Notes: generated by a model from the sequence alone, not told the origin. A stretch of 13,906 nt of DNA from Candidatus Hadarchaeales archaeon (GCA_038872135.1 JAVZGN010000023.1:1-13906); one strand, 5' to 3'. Positions 2,195 through 12,277 are shown, counted from the first letter of the stretch. A program made the numbers and translations.

Positions 2195-2402
2195 CAAATC
2201 AACGAAAGCCGAGAAGTGTAAAAGCTTTTACTGGGTAGTGATTGTTTTCTACATCTCCAACTGTGATTCTCGCCTCCTCCTATCAGACCTTGAGGGCCCA
2301 AATGAGCTTTGCTCCATTCCTTTCTCGAATATCACTCTTGTGTTCAACACACCCCTTCACTCATTGCCGTCCTGAATCATGAAGTTCGTCACATAAAAGA
2401 GG

Positions 2403-2474
2403 TGGGCCCGCGGGGATTCGAACCCCGGTTTTCACCGTGTGAGGGTGATGTCGTGACCACTGGACCACGGGCCC
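2403..2474 (-). tRNA. tRNA-Val (anticodon CAC), intronless, full CCA not encoded
   Basis: Reverse complement reads GGGCCCGTGGTCCAGTGGTCACGACATCACCCTCACACGGTGAAAACCGGGGTTCGAATCCCCGCGGGCCCA. Acceptor stem GGGCCCG/CGGGCCC, anticodon arm TCACC-CTCACAC-GGTGA, T-loop GTTCGAATC. Confidence 0.96.
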
Positions 2475-3349: not shown

Positions 3350-3757
3350 TTAAATTCTTTCGGCGCCTGGCTGTATTATCTCAACTACTCCGTTATCTGC
3401 ATCAACACTCAAAATGTCACCGGTTTTTAGTCTGCTTATGTCTATCTTGTCAACACATGGGATTCCAGCGAGGATAACTCCTGTAGCAACTATCGTCTCC
3501 GTCTCTGCGTTAACTATCGCTGCCGGGGCAACTCCATTTTTCTTCAGCCCATAAATCACATAGGAGCCGACGGTTGACCCCTTCCCCTTTGGAAAAACCA
3601 AAATCTTGTCTTTAACGCACTGCCCCTCCAGCTCATGTCCTTTCTCAATGACCACCCCCGTCTTTGGATCTACTCCACCATAGAAGCTGAGAGGGGTCCT
3701 GGAAACTAGCGCCACTCCCGTTGCCTTCCCCGGGCTTATGACTCTACCCTTCAGCAT
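3350..3757 (-). CDS. Aconitase X swiveling-domain subunit (DUF126); putative phosphomevalonate dehydratase small subunit
   Basis: Motifs LSFYGGVDPKTG..IEKGHEL.G, ILVFPKGKGSTVGSYVIY and ETIVATG. Overlaps the stop of the AcnX large subunit. Confidence 0.92.
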   Translation of the reverse strand: MLKGRVISPGKATGVALVSRTPLSFYGGVDPKTGVVIEKGHELEGQCVKDKILVFPKGKGSTVGSYVIYGLKKNGVAPAAIVNAETETIVATGVILAGIPCVDKIDISRLKTGDILSVDADNGVVEIIQPGAERI

Positions 3758-4938
3758 GAATACTCCTCCAGCAGCTCCTCGACACTTTTGAAAATCACCT
3801 GCTGCTTGCAGAACCCCGGGAGATAGTTTCCAGCCTTTCCAGAGTCGACTGCCACTGTCTTGAAGCCTAGCCTTTCGATTGGAGAGACAACTGCGCAGGT
3901 ATCTGCGACAACTTTTCCCCCGGCGGCCTCAATCTTCTGGACAAGCCCGAGCCGGGTTGCGGCATCCTTTGTGGCCCGGGCGGTGCATACCCAAAGGGGC
4001 TTCTTGAGCTTTTTTCCCTCGAGCATCCCAGCGATTTTTGAAATCTCCTTCAGAGAGGCGTGTGGGCAACCTAAGATTATGATGTCTGGCTCATCCCCTG
4101 TGTTGAGCTTCTCATAGGCTTCCTTTATTTCCCTTCCTGTTACCTCAATCTTCTCCAGCCCCGAGGGATTGAAAAGTGCAGCCTCTGGTGTTATTCCCTC
4201 GACGTGATATAGAGCAACTGCCCCGGAAGCCGCCATCGCTGCCCCAAGGGCCTTCAGCTGATCAACATCTGCCTCCTTGATTCCCCGGAAATAGGGAATG
4301 CCATCCTTTACTATCTTTCCCACATGATATCCCAATGCCCCGAAATCTGCGTTTGTCTTCAATTCTTCCTTCACCTCAATCAACATCGTTGGCCTCCTAT
4401 TCTCCGTTAAATGCAGGCCATAGTTTGGTGTCACTCCGCAGAGGGCTGCCGCAAGAGCCGATGGCCCTCCCTCCCTGTTAGTGCGCGCTCCGAGAACTGA
4501 ATTTGCAAATGAAACGGCGGAAGATTCAGACCAGGCGATGTGCTCTCCAAACCTCGGAAGATTCCCAACCAGATAGGGGGTGCAGGTGGCAGTGGTCATT
4601 ATCCCCATCTGCTTGAAGGCCTCAATTATCCTCATCTGCTTCTCAGCGAAATCTTGAGGGAAACCAAGCGCCTTCCAGTCGACCAGATCCATGCCTGGGG
4701 GATTCAAGGTGGTTGGGACCCTGACTTTTGCTCCCTTTGCAGCGATGTCCTCCAGAAACTCTAGCCCAGGATCCCCAATGGACTTGTAGGAAACGCCGGC
4801 CACCTGAACGGAGCTCACGGGGATCATCCTGTCTGCGCCGTATATCTCACCGAGTCTGACCAAGAGGCGGAAGTTGCGCTCGATCACTTCCCCGTAGGCT
4901 CCGGCGAGCATCTCCTCCTGCTCTTTTGTCAGATACAT
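3751..4938 (-). CDS. Aconitase X catalytic subunit (DUF521); putative phosphomevalonate dehydratase large subunit of the archaeal mevalonate pathway
   Basis: MYLTKEQEEML start, plus SGVSY-like AGVSYKSIGD, TCTPY, AWSESSAV.FANSVLGARTNREGGP, GCPHAS and DTCAVVSP motifs. Start moved from 4992 to ATG 4938. Confidence 0.93.
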   Translation of the reverse strand: MYLTKEQEEMLAGAYGEVIERNFRLLVRLGEIYGADRMIPVSSVQVAGVSYKSIGDPGLEFLEDIAAKGAKVRVPTTLNPPGMDLVDWKALGFPQDFAEKQMRIIEAFKQMGIMTTATCTPYLVGNLPRFGEHIAWSESSAVSFANSVLGARTNREGGPSALAAALCGVTPNYGLHLTENRRPTMLIEVKEELKTNADFGALGYHVGKIVKDGIPYFRGIKEADVDQLKALGAAMAASGAVALYHVEGITPEAALFNPSGLEKIEVTGREIKEAYEKLNTGDEPDIIILGCPHASLKEISKIAGMLEGKKLKKPLWVCTARATKDAATRLGLVQKIEAAGGKVVADTCAVVSPIERLGFKTVAVDSGKAGNYLPGFCKQQVIFKSVEELLEEYSC

Positions 4939-4969
4939 GCAAAAATCAATCTGCTTCCTATTCTTTAAA

Positions 4970-6331
4970 TTATTTGAGCATCTTCTCCTCAAACTCCTGG
5001 AGGTGCTTCACCGAGCGCTTGACGTCTATGAAGAGCTTGTTGGCTTTCACGATGTGCTCCTTTGTGACCTTCTTCGACTTTTCTGCTGCAGCTATTTCTG
5101 CCGCTGGGGCGAGGAGCTGGACGGCATATCTGAGAGAAGCTTCTGCCCCGATGTCGGCGAGGTATTCAATGGCATCCTCCTCCACCGCCACCTTCTCGGC
5201 CTTCGCTCTTATCTTCAGGATTTCCAGGATTTCCTCCCTGGTGTAGGGTTTGGTGGGGATTATGAGAAGTCTGTCGAGAAGGTCTATGGGCATCCCGTGG
5301 GGGGAGATGAAATCTGTTCCTCGGACGGAGGTTATTCCCCGGTTTGTTGCGAAAATCACGATTGGGGCCAGATCCTGCTCCATCCCCCGCCCGATGAATG
5401 AAAATGTTTCTATGTCGAGCATCGAGCACTCATCGATGAAAACCACTCCTGGAAGGATCTCGGCCTTTCCCTCTTCAACCCACCCCCTCACCATCTCGTC
5501 GACCTCAGCTCTCGTTTCATTTGAAATTTCCTTGCGCTCCTCCCCTCCGAAGAAGAGGCTGAAGACACTGGTTCCTGCTCTAGACTGGGCGACATCGAGG
5601 TCATGGAGGGTCACCGGATAGACGAACTCTTTGTGCTTCAGCACTGGCCCATCGGGGACTTCCACAACTGGAACTGTCGCGAGATCTGCCTTCTCCTTCT
5701 CTGCTGCCTCTTTTGACCTCCCGAGCTTTGCAACCCTCCCAGAGTCTGCATCTATCTGAACGACATCCCCGGTTTCCACACCCTGTCTGATCAGAGAGAT
5801 TGCAAACCCCTGATCCATCTTGAGGGTCTGGGTGGCGTCCTTGGTTGCCAACTTGATTGTGCCTCCAACTGGGATTTTTGTGTAGGGGTTGTAGGGGTGG
5901 GGCTGCTGGTCTATTCTCAATTCCTTGACCTCTCCCTCGTAAATTCTGCGCATTTCATGAATCCTGAGGCCGATCGCTTTCCTCAATGCCTGGGTCAAAA
6001 ACTCTGTTTTCTTTATCTCTGCAGAATAGATTTCTGAGGCGGTGAGGGGGACAAAGGGGACGTCCTTCCCGAGCTCTTTTGCTATTCCTATTGCAATGGC
6101 GGTCTTCCCGGTTCCAGGGGGTCCTGCGAGAAGAATGGCTCTTCCAGCAAACTTCCCTTTCTTGATCATTTGAACCACTACTCCCGCAGCTTCTCTCGCC
6201 TCTTTCTGGCCGACCATCCCTGCCGCTATTGGTTTTGCCTTTAAACCATCGAGGCCGAGGCCTAGGATGTGGGAGTGGGCGGCTACCCTTTCCCACTCTT
6301 TCAAATCGCGAGAAACCTGAATCTCTTCCAT
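4970..6331 (-). CDS. TIP49/RuvB-like AAA+ ATPase (archaeal RUVBL1/2 homolog)
   Basis: HSHILGLGLD, Walker A GPPGTGKT, EIYSAEIKKTEFL, VTLHDLD, Walker B FIDEC, ATNRG, PHGMPIDLLDR and SLRYAVQLL. Confidence 0.96.
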   Translation of the reverse strand: MEEIQVSRDLKEWERVAAHSHILGLGLDGLKAKPIAAGMVGQKEAREAAGVVVQMIKKGKFAGRAILLAGPPGTGKTAIAIGIAKELGKDVPFVPLTASEIYSAEIKKTEFLTQALRKAIGLRIHEMRRIYEGEVKELRIDQQPHPYNPYTKIPVGGTIKLATKDATQTLKMDQGFAISLIRQGVETGDVVQIDADSGRVAKLGRSKEAAEKEKADLATVPVVEVPDGPVLKHKEFVYPVTLHDLDVAQSRAGTSVFSLFFGGEERKEISNETRAEVDEMVRGWVEEGKAEILPGVVFIDECSMLDIETFSFIGRGMEQDLAPIVIFATNRGITSVRGTDFISPHGMPIDLLDRLLIIPTKPYTREEILEILKIRAKAEKVAVEEDAIEYLADIGAEASLRYAVQLLAPAAEIAAAEKSKKVTKEHIVKANKLFIDVKRSVKHLQEFEEKMLK

Positions 6332-6353
6332 GGAAATTCCATATACTAATTTT

Positions 6354-6370
6354 ATTTTTTAAAAATTTTC
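6354..6370 (-). promoter_or_regulatory. BRE/TATA promoter of the TIP49 gene (probably leaderless)
   Basis: The minus strand reads GAAAATTTTTAAAAAAT about 25-35 nt upstream of ATG 6331. Confidence 0.55.
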
Positions 6371-6381
6371 TGGGGCTTCAG

Positions 6382-7058
6382 GTGGACACGTGTCTACCCA
6401 AGCCGACCGAACTTCAGTTATGGAAGTGGACACGTGTCTACGCCAGCGATGAATCAATTCATGCTGGTGAAATTCGCGGTCTTGGGATGAGAAATTTCTT
6501 CTTTAAAAAGAGGGTCCACACAAAGATATGGCGGGAAAGTGGAGAAAAAGGCATCGGGGGAGAAATGGCTGCTGCTGACGTGGGATTTCAAGAGAAAAGC
6601 CTATGGGAGGAGCTCATTCTACAAGAGGCTCACCGAAATTTTTTCCCAGTTGCCTTCCGGAAGCTGGCGGAGGGTTGGCGGATCGGTCTACCTTTTGAAA
6701 GGGAGGCATGCCGCAGAGGTTAAAGGACTGCTAACACAGGCAGAAAATTCTGGGTTGAAATGGCGTGAATTTCGTGTGGTCGATTAGTGGACACGTGTCT
6801 ACTCAGGTTCGACAAAATTTTCCAGTCGAGGAAGAGCTGTGGACACGTGTCTATATTTCATCCCACACTCTCAACTCCACATATATCAAAATTTTCGACT
6901 CACGCAGACGGAGAAGTGGACACGTGTCTACTTGAGTTTGATCAAGTTTTCCATATGGGGAGGAGCCGTGGACACGTGTCTACCTGGGCAGAGCCAAGTT
7001 GAACAGGAAGTGGACACGTGTCTACTGAGTTTTTGAGCGACGATAGACACGTGTCTAC
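6382..7058. repeat. Cluster of eight 16-bp near-palindromic repeats, consensus GTGGACACGTGTCTAC
   Basis: Copies at 6382, 6426, 6787, 6839 (last base T), 6916, 6968, 7010 and 7043 (ATAGACACGTGTCTAC). The core GACACGTGTC is a perfect palindrome in all eight. Confidence 0.97.
6539..6787 (+). CDS. 82-aa protein with a Cas2/VapD/PaaX-middle-domain-like (ferredoxin fold) pattern
   Basis: WLLLTWDF (beta1 ending in an acidic residue), RSSFYKRL helix and RRVGGSVYLL (compare Cas2 RVQxSVFE). TTTAAAAA TATA at ~6502 and a purine-rich RBS precede the GTG. Confidence 0.6.
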   Translation: MEKKASGEKWLLLTWDFKRKAYGRSSFYKRLTEIFSQLPSGSWRRVGGSVYLLKGRHAAEVKGLLTQAENSGLKWREFRVVD

Positions 7059-7123
7059 ACTGCGGACTCGATTTGCGAATGATACGACGATTTTAAAATG
7101 AATCACTAAGATGATTTGAGCGA

Positions 7124-7798
7124 ATGGTGAAAAAAATCCGGGAAGAAAGCAGGGTGATAAAACTCGAGACTGTCGGCTACGACTCAAATGTCTATTTGCT
7201 TTTGGGAAATCCCGTAGCGATGATCGACGCTGGGACGGGAAACTACATCGAGCTGATGCTAGCCGAGATGAGGAAACTTGGGCTGGAACCTGAGGACATC
7301 TCTCTCGTCGTCAACACCCACTGCCACTTTGACCACGCTGGAGGAGACCACTTCTTTTTCTCCGCTGGAGCTACAATCGCCATTCACGAAAGTGAATCAC
7401 CTGCTCTGGAAACAGGCGATGAAGCAATAACCTGCTCTGCCATGTTTGGAGAGAAAATGCCCCCTGTAAAAGTTGGGATAAAATTGAGGGAGGGAGATGT
7501 TGTGGAGGCCGGGGATTTTAAATTGAAAGTCCTCCACACTCCCGGCCACACAGTCGGAAGCATCTGCCTCTATGACGCTGAGAAGAAACTGCTTTTCTCC
7601 GGCGACACCGTCTTCTGCGGTGGCGTCGGGAGAACCGACCTCCCAACCGGGAACGAAGATGAACTCCTCAAAAGCCTCAAAAAGCTTGAAAAGCTTGAGG
7701 TAGAAGCCCTCTACCCAGGGCATGGACCATTTGCAGAGAAGGAAGGAAAAAAGCATGTTGAAGAAGCATTGAAAATCCTGGAGGGCGGGTTCTTCTGA
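7124..7798 (+). CDS. MBL-fold metallo-hydrolase (glyoxalase II-like)
   Basis: SNVYL, IDAG, THCHFDHAGG (HxHxDH), HTPGHT.GS, FSGDTVF and YPGHG. Confidence 0.93.
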   Translation: MVKKIREESRVIKLETVGYDSNVYLLLGNPVAMIDAGTGNYIELMLAEMRKLGLEPEDISLVVNTHCHFDHAGGDHFFFSAGATIAIHESESPALETGDEAITCSAMFGEKMPPVKVGIKLREGDVVEAGDFKLKVLHTPGHTVGSICLYDAEKKLLFSGDTVFCGGVGRTDLPTGNEDELLKSLKKLEKLEVEALYPGHGPFAEKEGKKHVEEALKILEGGFF

Positions 7799-9783: not shown

Positions 9784-10605
9784 TCATTCACTTGTGCCGG
9801 TGAGGGCCCTGACCAGCCGACGGGTCACCTCTGAGAGTGTGGCTTTCCCAGAAATTGCCGGCAGATCCTTTTCGCCGACCAAAACTTTCGCCAGCTCATG
9901 AATCGCCACAGAAGCTGAGCATTCAGGATCATAAACCACAAGAGGGATTCCAGCATTCTCAGCCTCCTGGACTTTTGAATCTTCAGGAATTTCCGCCAGG
10001 ACAGGAATTGGGCCGAGGGCTCTGCTCATGAACTGCTCTACCTCCTTTCCCGTGAGCTCGGACCTCTTTCCCACCCTGTTTAACACTATCCCCCGCGTCC
10101 AAGCCCCGAGAAGATTTGCAAATCTCACCATCTTATAACCGTCAACTATGCTGGGGTGAGTGGGGTTGCAGACTAGGAGCATCTCGCTGGCGGCCGCAAT
10201 TGAAACTATTGTTGCATCCTGGACGCCGGCGGCAGCATCTATCAGGAGAAAATCTGTGTCCTTCAGGAGTTCACGAACAACCTCTTTCACCCTCTCCCTA
10301 TCTATTCCAGAAATGGCCTCTTGAGCATCCTCAAACCTGAAACCTGTCGGGATGACCCTCACCCCTCTACTCTCATAAACTGCATAGTCGAGATCTGCCT
10401 TCCCCTTCAGAACATCTAGAAAACTTGTTTTCACCTGGTGGATGCCCAGGATTATCGCAAGATTGGCCATTGCCAGATCCCCATCGATTATTGTGACCCT
10501 CTTCCCGAGAGTTGAAAGAGAAATTCCCAAGTTTGCCGTGAGGGTTGTTTTGCCTGTTCCACCCTTCCCCGATGTTATCGAGATTGATCTCGCTCTTATC
10601 CTCAT
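9784..10605 (-). CDS. minD: MinD/ParA-family ATPase (archaeal MinD-like)
   Basis: Deviant Walker A SGKGGTGKTT, IDGDLAMANL, LLIDAAAG, GIVLNRV and EIPED..V. Confidence 0.85.
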   Translation of the reverse strand: MRIRARSISITSGKGGTGKTTLTANLGISLSTLGKRVTIIDGDLAMANLAIILGIHQVKTSFLDVLKGKADLDYAVYESRGVRVIPTGFRFEDAQEAISGIDRERVKEVVRELLKDTDFLLIDAAAGVQDATIVSIAAASEMLLVCNPTHPSIVDGYKMVRFANLLGAWTRGIVLNRVGKRSELTGKEVEQFMSRALGPIPVLAEIPEDSKVQEAENAGIPLVVYDPECSASVAIHELAKVLVGEKDLPAISGKATLSEVTRRLVRALTGTSE

Positions 10606-10673
10606 GATTGTCAGAATTATTCTAATTTCGGCTTAAAATAGGTGCTTGGTGGGATTCCATTAAGCGACAGCAG

Positions 10674-11189
10674 TCACTGTTTGAAGTAGCAAATTTTCAG
10701 CTCCTCATCGTAAACTTTTGGCTCTGGTAGCTTTCTCGCCTCCTCAGGGGTCAATCCATCTATTCTCCTCCACCCGTGCATGACGGCATTTGCCCTGAGG
10801 CCCAAGTCAACTTTCCTGAGCAGGCAGGTGGTATTCTCCTGGATTCTCCTGACCTTTTTGAGGGTGCATGAAATATCCTCTTGGACCTTCTGCATCTTTC
10901 TGAGCATGCAAGTGGTGTCCTCTTGGACCTTGTGCATCTTTCTGAGCATGCAAGTGGTGTCCTCTTGAACTCTCCTTATGTCCTCCTGAACCTTTTTCAC
11001 CTCGCCGAGGACCGATTCGATCCTAGAGAGTATCTGATGGGTCTGAGCGGTAGTTGTTTCGATTATCTTTTGTGTCTGGCGGTTGCTTGATTCGATTATC
11101 TTCTGAGTCTGCCGGTTGCTCAAAATAACTGTGACGATTATCGGAAGGGTGATCGCCCCGAAGGCCTGAAGGATATCCATCAATATCAT
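10674..11189 (-). CDS. Membrane-anchored coiled-coil protein with internal tandem repeats, function unknown
   Basis: AGGAGGTGA RBS before ATG 11189. N-terminal hydrophobic helix, then SNRQTQKIIE x2 and QEDTTCMLRKMxKV-type 14-aa repeats. Confidence 0.75.
   Translation of the reverse strand: MILMDILQAFGAITLPIIVTVILSNRQTQKIIESSNRQTQKIIETTTAQTHQILSRIESVLGEVKKVQEDIRRVQEDTTCMLRKMHKVQEDTTCMLRKMQKVQEDISCTLKKVRRIQENTTCLLRKVDLGLRANAVMHGWRRIDGLTPEEARKLPEPKVYDEELKICYFKQ
10876..10967. repeat. 42-bp tandem repeat, two near-identical copies plus a partial one, within a CDS
   Basis: TCCTCTTGGACCTT(C/G)TGCATCTTTCTGAGCATGCAAGTGGTG at 10876 and 10918 (41/42 identical). A partial copy starts at 10960 and degenerate copies flank the pair. 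Confidence 0.9.
11058..11120. repeat. 33-bp tandem duplication within a CDS (SNRQTQKIIE x2)
   Basis: TTCGATTATCTTTTGTGTCTGGCGGTTGCT at 11058 and TTCGATTATCTTCTGAGTCTGCCGGTTGCT at 11091; the differences are synonymous. Confidence 0.85.
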
Positions 11190-11305
11190 CTTTCTTTCAC
11201 CTCCTATTTCTCCTTTTCCCGCCAAAGTTTTGCGAGGAGGTCATTTATAAAGGAGGAAAACCGTGGCTCGAAAACCAACTTGATAAATAAAGGAATGGAA
11301 GGAAA

Positions 11306-12226: not shown

Positions 12227-12277
12227 TAATAAATGGGGCTTTTGAGCTCAACAAGGCATAGGGTCAATTGGGGGGAT

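Follow-up and report, generated by a model that had tools for sequence, protein, structure and literature searches.

The window analysed here, a stretch of 13,906 nucleotides corresponding to contig C23 of a Candidatus Hadarchaeales archaeon genome (G000; 1.08 Mb in 34 contigs, 91% complete), harbors an array of a 16-bp palindrome. Eight plus-strand copies were located between positions 6382 and 7058 by a window scan, six of them exact, one with a single mismatch and one with two. By chance 0.03 copies are expected, the count was matched in 0/200 shuffles of the window, and no further copy of the 16-mer was found in the rest of it. The exact copies are R1 (6382..6397), R2 (6426..6441), R3 (6787..6802), R5 (6916..6931), R6 (6968..6983) and R7 (7010..7025); R4 (6839..6854) deviates at the last base, which is T, and R8 (7043..7058) represents a fully symmetric-core variant with two mismatches (ATAGAC...). 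The copies are separated by gaps of 17-61 bp, plus one gap of 345 bp which contains a gene. The eight copies had been noted by a sequence-only reading of the same DNA, which also correctly gave the start-to-start spacings (44, 361, 52, 77, 52, 42, and 33 bp), the G at position 3 in seven of the eight copies, the common orientation of these seven and the presence of a gene within the 361-bp interval, i.e., the open reading frame at 6539-6787, which it did not link to the array. Its proposal of a helical phasing was not confirmed, as 13 of 22 short spacings taken across the family loci described below (n=22) fall within 0.2 turn of an integer compared to about 9 expected, which is not significant.

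A higher-order structure of the array is evident from the R3-R4 and R5-R6 units, which are 81% alike. Between both units, the repeats differ at 1 of 32 positions and the spacers at 13 of 36 (Fisher p = 0.0007), and the motif is thus constrained relative to the intervening DNA, in agreement with the earlier statement that the repeats were kept while the spacers diverged. Unitigs of run X1, possibly the source sample, showed 0 differences to the window over 6330-6986. Among the sequencing runs listed as containing the locus, none is an RNA run.

Divergent from the array, a TIP49/RuvB-like AAA+ gene occupies positions 4970..6331 on the minus strand, with R1 about 20 bp from its TATA-like box. The promoter and start region of this gene (6313-6372) forms a 60-bp stretch of 77% AT which adjoins R1 and ranks at the 99.9th percentile of the genome. 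R2 ends 60 bp upstream of a plus-strand TATA-like box (TTTAAAAA, 6502..6509), the presumed promoter of a small open reading frame encoding 82 amino acids (P0001; 6539..6787, plus strand) between R2 and R3. The GTG of this frame follows about 30 bp downstream of the box, the same TATA-to-gene layout is found in relatives, and the last base of the stop codon is at the same time the first base of R3. A metallo-beta-lactamase-fold (MBL-fold) gene (7124-7798) lies downstream of R8 and features a plus-strand TATA-like box (7092..7098) about 25 bp upstream, with 34 bp separating this box from the end of R8. In addition, a MinD/ParA-like gene is encoded at 9784-10605, 2.7 kb from the array. All eight copies are placed either upstream of a TATA box or downstream of the small frame, and no intact palindrome, only a degenerate half-site-like stretch, is found from the TATA-like box of the small gene to its GTG. 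Judged by these positions, the TIP49 gene is a candidate for a regulated target and the MBL-fold gene may be a further one; in congeners, TIP49 is not retained as a neighbor of the array.

Searches with P0001 yielded no match in Pfam or NCBIfam and nothing in a PDB sequence-profile comparison, and a homologous-protein search returned the query alone. Its neighbors in the ESM Atlas are only clusters of "hypothetical protein" (0.88-0.90), and about seven convincing relatives of 81-109 amino acids were obtained among 1.84 billion representative proteins. A six-frame search of 66 Hadarchaeota genomes detected the family, with a length of about 75 amino acids and so far found only in this phylum, in 50 genomes and in two tiers. 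The P0001-like tier comprises 24 matches of at least 64 bits in 15 of the 66 genomes, often in multiple copies, with internal stops in 4 of the 24 matches, and matches of the C10-like tier score about 40-56 bits, usually with one copy per genome. Up to nine family matches were counted in a single genome (G064). Likewise, a scan of 185,579 species, with one genome per species and a single narrow peptide pattern, resulted in 8 confirmed loci, all of them in metagenome-assembled genomes of Hadarchaeota/Hadesarchaea.

An AlphaFold2 model based on a 29-row family alignment reached a pLDDT of 94.6 and shows a ferredoxin-like b-a-b-b-a-b topology with a basic first helix (a1); the mean net charge is +4.6. 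The invariant residues of the alignment are L, W, F-Y, S and W, all of which are kept in P0001. D or E comes after the first invariant Trp in 29/29 rows, where strand 1 ends, and strand 3 features an S-V-(F/Y) motif. Nearly all of the best Foldseek matches of the model are Cas2/VapD proteins (E = 1.7e-4 to 1e-2, TM about 0.6), with 8d3l_E at the top (E = 1.7e-4), followed by 4es1, 5zyf and 3ui3. By VIA-align, 70 residues were aligned to Cas2 (Z 6.8, rmsd 2.4 A), which is level with NikR-C, ACT, PII and designed ferredoxins; the best Z amounted to 8.3 for a single-sequence model and to 7.6 and 7.8 for the alignment-based model. In the VIA-align searches, no family of any kind rose above generic ferredoxin-like folds, and a DNA-binding family did not stand out in any of the fold searches. 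Comparison of the family profile with Hadarchaeota Cas2 by hhalign gave a probability of 0.9%, 0/29 family members matched the Pfam Cas2 family (PF09827), and a six-frame search of the whole genome found no Cas2. The predicted shape of P0001 is Cas2-like, and membership in that family is not demonstrable.

The connection between the protein and the repeats becomes apparent from other members of the phylum. In all 17 P0001-like loci inspected (L007-L015, the window, L017-L021, L042 and L044), palindromes of the family type adjoin the open reading frame, and in 11 of the 17 a copy is situated within about 40 bp of both of its ends. The palindromes of 14-18 bp are lineage-specific and follow one design across the phylum, i.e., T-(G/T/A)-(C/G)-AC, a self-complementary centre of 4 nt and the mirror arm. 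The types are TGCAC-GGCC-GTGCA, TGCAC-ACGT-GTGCA, TGCAC-AGCT-GTGCA, TTCAC-ACGT-GTGAA, TGGAC-ACGT-GTCTA in the window and TAGAC-ACGT-GTCTA in the congener G001. The usual layout in relatives consists of a TATA box, about 35 bp, a palindrome, the open reading frame and again a palindrome; in three loci (L011, L014 and L042) the ATG overlaps the palindrome, and two others (L007 and L008) feature five abutting units with a 13-bp period on the upstream side only. Moreover, many copies in relatives are situated upstream of TATA boxes and others just past the stop codon. A phylum-wide 12-mer search allowing one mismatch was too noisy for use. In an exact-pattern search, most single GGCC-type sites of gene-less genomes were located inside long open reading frames with unrelated flanks; such sites are probably coincidental, and a few are remnants of the module.

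Placed on the protein tree, the palindrome type requires 16 changes, with a minimum of 14 and a shuffled mean of 26.1, and 0/200 shuffles were as low. The palindrome type thus follows the protein tree, and the association is partly one of co-inheritance. Paralogues within one genome nevertheless feature different palindromes, namely a GGCC centre versus an ACGT centre in G015, two types in G001, and the window type versus an AT-rich type at the C10 paralogue in G000, a difference for which genome ancestry cannot account. Two positions past F-Y in helix a1, N or Q is found in 7 of the 8 loci of the GC-inner type and K or R in 11 of the 13 loci of the CG-inner type (named after the inner dinucleotide of the centre), a purely descriptive comparison which is confounded by phylogeny. 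A scan constraining only the arms revealed a self-complementary centre in 52 of 54 family sites, with ACGT in 32, GGCC in 15 and AGCT in 5 of the 52. Self-complementarity of the centre is needed by a two-fold-symmetric dimer on duplex DNA and not by the loop of a hairpin. Together with the better conservation of the repeats compared to the spacers, this supports the platform for a dimeric protein under selection that the sequence-only reading had proposed, and the further designation of this platform as a centromere or iteron array finds no such support.

Genome-wide, 15 copies of the 10-bp core were counted in 1.08 Mb, compared to one occurrence of a reversed-pattern control, 13 of which belong to two arrays (8 in the window, 5 on contig C4) and two of which are singles. 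The second array (C4:21358-21665) comprises the five core copies and a degenerate one, i.e., six, in an orientation opposite to that of the window array, and shares 95% identity over 111 bp, spacers included, with the R5-R7 stretch. It contains no small open reading frame and lies between L13-S9-RpoN genes, the RpoN label being a reading of the sequence, and PEBP-RuBisCO genes; relative to the genes downstream of it, the array is likewise in the opposite orientation. The two singles (C6:37498 and C33:3392) match at 15 of 16 positions, are each located inside an open reading frame and are the only 15-of-16 sites outside the arrays of this genome, which thus contains 16 sites in total; about 0.025 such matches per genome are expected by estimate. 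SegB and parS sites show such an intragenic location more typically than operators do. In one contig of another study, the gene is apparently absent between two copies, according to a single 171-nt record with a depth of 2.5.

The C10-like paralogue is near-universal in Hadarchaeota and was directly followed by a co-directional CDC48-type AAA+ gene in 10/10 loci examined, an arrangement as would be expected for a dedicated regulator of the CDC48-type gene. In the genome of the window, this paralogue is associated with an AT-rich palindrome of 18 bp that occurs in only two copies genome-wide, 33 bp apart and on either side of the TATA-like box of the gene.

Taken together, the observed sites, their distribution, their association with the gene and the co-variation of both are best explained if the palindromes are cognate double-stranded DNA sites of a symmetric dimer that regulates its own gene and controls neighboring promoters, a reading to which we assign a probability of roughly 60%. 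The 82-amino-acid frame in the array centre probably encodes the palindrome-binding protein. According to this proposal, P0001 would bind the palindromes as a two-fold-symmetric dimer with the basic first helix reading the DNA, and in relatives a site between TATA box and start codon would mediate autorepression. In the genome of the window, the set of sites would have been expanded to eight copies, with sites upstream of three promoters: R1 lies upstream of that of TIP49, R1-R2 upstream of that of the small gene and R3-R8 upstream of that of the MBL-fold gene. The gene-less array upstream of the PEBP-RuBisCO genes suggests that P0001 may act in trans, and the arrays could load several dimers cooperatively and in this way regulate or insulate promoters. 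Among the three options offered by the sequence-only reading, the cooperative operator array fits best, and the parS-like centromere and the replication iterons are not supported. Most likely, the pairing of protein and palindromes represents a DNA-binding regulator of a new kind rather than a centromere or an origin. Some observations sit less comfortably with the operator role, among them the intragenic singles. The window lacks the autorepression layout of the relatives, as no intact site lies proximal to the start, and the positions of the copies are as compatible with activation, insulation or a role outside transcription as with repression. Furthermore, the frequent decay and dispensability of the module, outlined below, are not what one usually finds in a protein regulating core genes, for instance those of RuBisCO or TIP49. 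In a bolder form, which is tentative and rather improbable, Cas2/VapD-shaped mini-proteins would have evolved palindrome recognition and constitute self-contained gene-plus-repeat modules with fast, lineage-wise switching of specificity.

The fold and the distribution also allow a selfish or accessory module, in which a Cas2/VapD-shaped, possibly metal-dependent nuclease or toxin-like factor with its own palindromes would serve addiction, exclusion or mobility instead of regulating host genes. The Foldseek matches, the acidic residue behind the first invariant Trp, in the position taken in Cas2 by an invariant Asp, the sporadic and multi-copy occurrence of the 24 high-scoring matches, the recurrent decay, the fast turnover of specificity and a protein tree that departs from taxonomy are in line with such a module, as is an island in G064 containing three copies together with PIN genes and an integrase fragment. 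We consider it unlikely, since the hhalign probability is 0.9%, 0/29 family members match nuclease or toxin families of Pfam, Cas2 is tied by geometry with many ferredoxin-like folds, a conserved partner gene was not found, and intact flanking sites would be self-destructive for an unprotected nuclease. The history of the module points in the same direction. Flanking genes differ in nearly every P0001-like locus, which might suggest mobility; this was set aside because synteny is generally poor in these genomes and because one site in genus g8 shows old residence and decay. There, G055 and G052 carry the module with an NTP-transferase gene on one side and a PGM gene on the other, and both flanks align at 77-86% identity in five congeners. 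The palindrome or a near-copy and about the first ten codons remain in three genomes (G048, G017 and G010), about the last 30 codons only in G023, and nothing recognizable between the flanks in G051. These remnants at an orthologous site reveal the module as an old, dispensable resident that decays repeatedly and not as a fresh insertion.

Comparably doubtful are centromere-like or chromosome-organizing sites with a SegB-like loading for the segregation or folding of the chromosome, perhaps in conjunction with a MinD/ParA-type ATPase. The site clusters beside the protein's own gene, together with the two intragenic 15-of-16 singles, resemble the SegB pattern, in which, according to the corresponding study, a cluster of sites is located upstream of segAB and 83.7% of the others are intragenic (10.1101/2025.02.07.637068). 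A MinD/ParA-like gene is found not only 2.7 kb from the window array, another one lies about 190 bp from a decayed module (L021), and the gene-less array on C4 provides a second cluster. Still, an ATPase is a neighbor in only 1 of 14 other annotated loci, the ATPases of the window and L021 share just 32% identity, and the predicted fold is not ribbon-helix-helix (RHH). Several checks named by the sequence-only reading also turned out negative. The only ParB_N match of the 91% complete genome (C8:22451-22678) reached 21.2 bits and stays below the cut-off of 26.3 bits, so that a ParB above this threshold was not detected. Concerning the motif in the three same-genus genomes, 0 sites were counted in G002 and G003 and a variant was found at other loci in G001, whereby a condition that the sequence-only reading itself had set as a refutation, absence at the corresponding locus of close relatives, applies; synteny with TIP49 is not kept either, as the gene features different neighbors in G001 and G003 at 68-69% DNA identity. 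A gene and motif that are missing or decayed in many relatives, with a palindrome differing even among congeners, are ill-suited to an essential segregation function.

An action at the RNA level, with hairpins for stability, processing or termination which the small protein might bind or cleave, loosely as in CRISPR systems, is very unlikely. On the plus strand, every copy can fold into a hairpin of 6-8 bp (-4.0 to -10.1 kcal/mol), which is more stable than on the minus strand in seven of eight copies because the single asymmetry turns into a G-U pair; all eight copies are co-oriented, they occur at both ends of the open reading frame, and the Cas2/VapD relatives include RNases. Against this, the 4-nt "loop" is self-complementary in 52 of 54 sites through three versions, the copies of relatives are often placed upstream of TATA boxes and thereby outside the likely transcript, and the C4 array is reversed relative to its downstream genes. 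No tandem period was found in the array, and the best match in Rfam had E = 0.57. A CRISPR array was rejected for similar reasons, i.e., no tandem period, uneven gaps, mutually similar spacers and no Cas2 in the genome.

We likewise give little credit to a neutral expansion, in which slippage or unequal crossing-over would have multiplied an operator pair that once functioned and left an array with no selected role at present. The likeness of the R3-R4 and R5-R6 units and the exchange with C4 indicate recent duplication or conversion, the family decays often, and the apparently gene-less contig mentioned above would conform to it; nevertheless, the repeats of the duplicated units are much better conserved than their spacers, and the small frame has kept every family-invariant residue. 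Least probable of all is a replication origin with initiator sites beside an AT-rich unwinding element. It would be suited by the clustering of repeats within extended intergenic DNA, by the AT-rich stretch adjoining R1 and by the second cluster, a possible second origin, as archaea often possess several. However, both Orc1/Cdc6 genes (Cdc6_C matches), whose vicinity the sequence-only reading had asked about, are encoded on C8 and C3 and the arrays on C23 and C4, a separation seen at the level of contigs. The AT-rich DNA overlaps the promoter and start of TIP49, on contigs this short the GC skew tracks gene orientation, no clear array of ORB-like repeats was found beside the orc1/cdc6 genes, and the sites accompany the small gene in 17/17 loci of unrelated genomic contexts with modules that decay freely.

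Little is known about archaeal transcription factors and chromosome organizers beyond the helix-turn-helix (HTH) and RHH classes, and the Hadarchaeota have not been brought into culture. To our knowledge, a ferredoxin-like domain this small is not an established archaeal DNA-binding fold. In the bolder and rather improbable form given above, the family would represent either a DNA-binding domain new to archaea, with private arrays of sites that follow an E2/EBNA1-like logic within a cell, or a living example of the way in which a Cas2-like protein can become tied to palindromic repeat arrays. The locus offers a compact and testable protein-DNA pair of a protein of about 75 amino acids and a 16-bp site, and its natural specificity variants (ACGT, GGCC and AGCT centres as well as AT-rich arms) could provide a system for a new DNA-recognition code. 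Should the Cas2/VapD likeness reflect ancestry, it would bear on the relation between proteins of this kind and palindromic repeats. An action of the arrays on the promoters of RuBisCO and TIP49, if real, would amount to the first regulatory circuit proposed for the phylum.

With regard to known systems, the nearest in organization is SegB of the Sulfolobales, likewise a small archaeal site-specific protein with palindromes clustered at its own gene and further isolated sites mostly inside genes (10.1101/2025.02.07.637068). SegB is an RHH protein with a co-encoded ParA-type SegA, and its motif is conserved across genera with dozens of chromosomal sites; the family described here features a ferredoxin-like model (b-a-b-b-a-b), 13 of 14 other loci in which the gene has no Walker ATPase beside it, palindromes that differ between congeners and only two sites outside the arrays. 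The parS/ParB system shares the 16-bp palindrome, the CACGTG core and the clusters, according to the comparison drawn by the sequence-only reading; it is set apart by the missing ParB_N match above the cut-off and by the motif not being conserved in relatives, and no linkage to an origin was seen here, with Orc1/Cdc6 on other contigs. Similarity to Cas2/VapD includes size, topology, the acidic residue of strand 1 and S-V-(F/Y) in strand 3. The invariant Y-D of Hadarchaeota Cas2 occupies the same topological place, an equivalence that is a reading of two alignments, and the likeness comes without sequence-profile support, Cas1 or CRISPR context.

RAYT transposases are HUH/Tyr enzymes of about twice the size of P0001, and their REPs number in hundreds. 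The present module resembles them by analogy only, in that a gene is flanked by its own palindromes and gene-less clusters occur elsewhere, and differs in the absence of an HUH motif from the family alignment and in the 16 sites of the genome. Papillomavirus E2 as well as EBNA1 and LANA form dimeric beta-barrels of ferredoxin-like half-barrels, the first helix of which recognizes the half-sites of a palindrome on either side of a short centre, and they occupy multi-copy site arrays on maintained DNA. This parallel is an analogy as well: the context is viral and eukaryotic, these proteins are absent among the listed fold matches, and no homology is claimed. Phr is an archaeal heat-shock regulator that controls an AAA+ ATPase gene, and small plasmid and phage repressors are autoregulated. 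Such repressor-operator cassettes compare well with the dimer-type site overlapping the own promoter in relatives and, in the case of Phr, with the C10-like paralogue directly upstream of its CDC48-type AAA+ gene (10/10 loci); they differ in that the fold here is not HTH, winged HTH or RHH, and in that sites are also found past the stop codon and in large arrays, with a window promoter without a proximal site. The titles and abstracts of the literature yielded no description of the small-protein family or of the gene-palindrome module. Systems of this general kind, in which a small protein has its private binding sites, are already known; the protein family, its fold in such a role and the switching palindromes are new.

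Copies of the 16-bp palindrome are also found elsewhere in the source genome, G000. A second array, which comprises six copies and lacks the small gene, is located on contig C4 (21358-21665, corresponding to 7359-7666 of the inspected locus L001), with L13-S9-RpoN genes on one side and PEBP-RuBisCO genes on the other. Copies R5-R7 of the window are 95% identical to this array over 111 bp. In addition, two isolated matches, each agreeing at 15 of 16 positions, lie within coding regions at C6:37498 and C33:3392, namely in an ORF read by us as DapB-like and in a 388-aa ORF, and their number exceeds the chance expectation.

In the window itself, the sequence at 6512-6521, situated between the TATA-like box of the small gene and its start, is similar to the outer portion of one half-site and may be a proximal operator that has decayed. 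A single 171-nt contig (depth 2.5) from the sequencing run X3, which belongs to a different hot-spring study, relates to window positions 6401-6839; in this contig, only 22 nt separate R1 from an R4-like copy, and the small gene is skipped. This contig may represent a strain-level variant without the gene.

Relatives feature further arrangements of the module, i.e., the family gene with its own palindromes. Upstream of the TATA box, the sites of two genus g8 genomes are arranged as five abutting units that repeat every 13 bp (L007:1360-1430 and L008:1795-1835), the promoter-proximal site being degenerate in both. In genome G001, two inverted module copies, one intact and one frameshifted, were located at the end of contig C9 (L004:7090-7490) and the start of C5 (L005:1-420). 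The same sequence terminates both contigs, and the assembly break falls within an inverted duplication of the module. An accessory island of genome G064 (L047, G064:C24:9800-17300) harbors three copies of the small-protein family within 4.5 kb, accompanied by three PIN-domain genes, a DUF5615/PIN-like gene, a MarR-like gene and an integrase N-terminal fragment.

On contig C8 of G000, a ParB_N-like ORF with a sub-threshold match (22451-22678), a decayed small-gene copy with an internal TAG (24641-24793) and an Orc1/Cdc6 gene (31197-31481) occur within about 9 kb.

The window further encodes an IS-type transposase with HTH and rve integrase core (388-1308), a tRNA-Val (2401-2474, reverse strand) and, immediately downstream of TIP49, the adjacent large-subunit and swivel-domain genes of aconitase X (AcnX; 3350-4992, reverse strand). 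A MinD/ParA-like ATPase gene and the preceding 183-aa ORF, which shows a weak DUF948 match, occupy 9784-11225, and the gene of a CBM96-domain surface protein starts at 12233.

The small protein has a near-universal paralogue, whose gene lies outside the window on G000 contig C10 (18230-18565; related loci L024-L035) and is directly followed by a CDC48-type AAA+ gene in all 10 loci examined. Paralogues of this type are flanked by AT-rich palindromes, of which G000 possesses two copies genome-wide, both around the paralogue's own TATA-like box. The C10-type paralogue is a candidate for a dedicated CDC48 regulator in Hadarchaeota.
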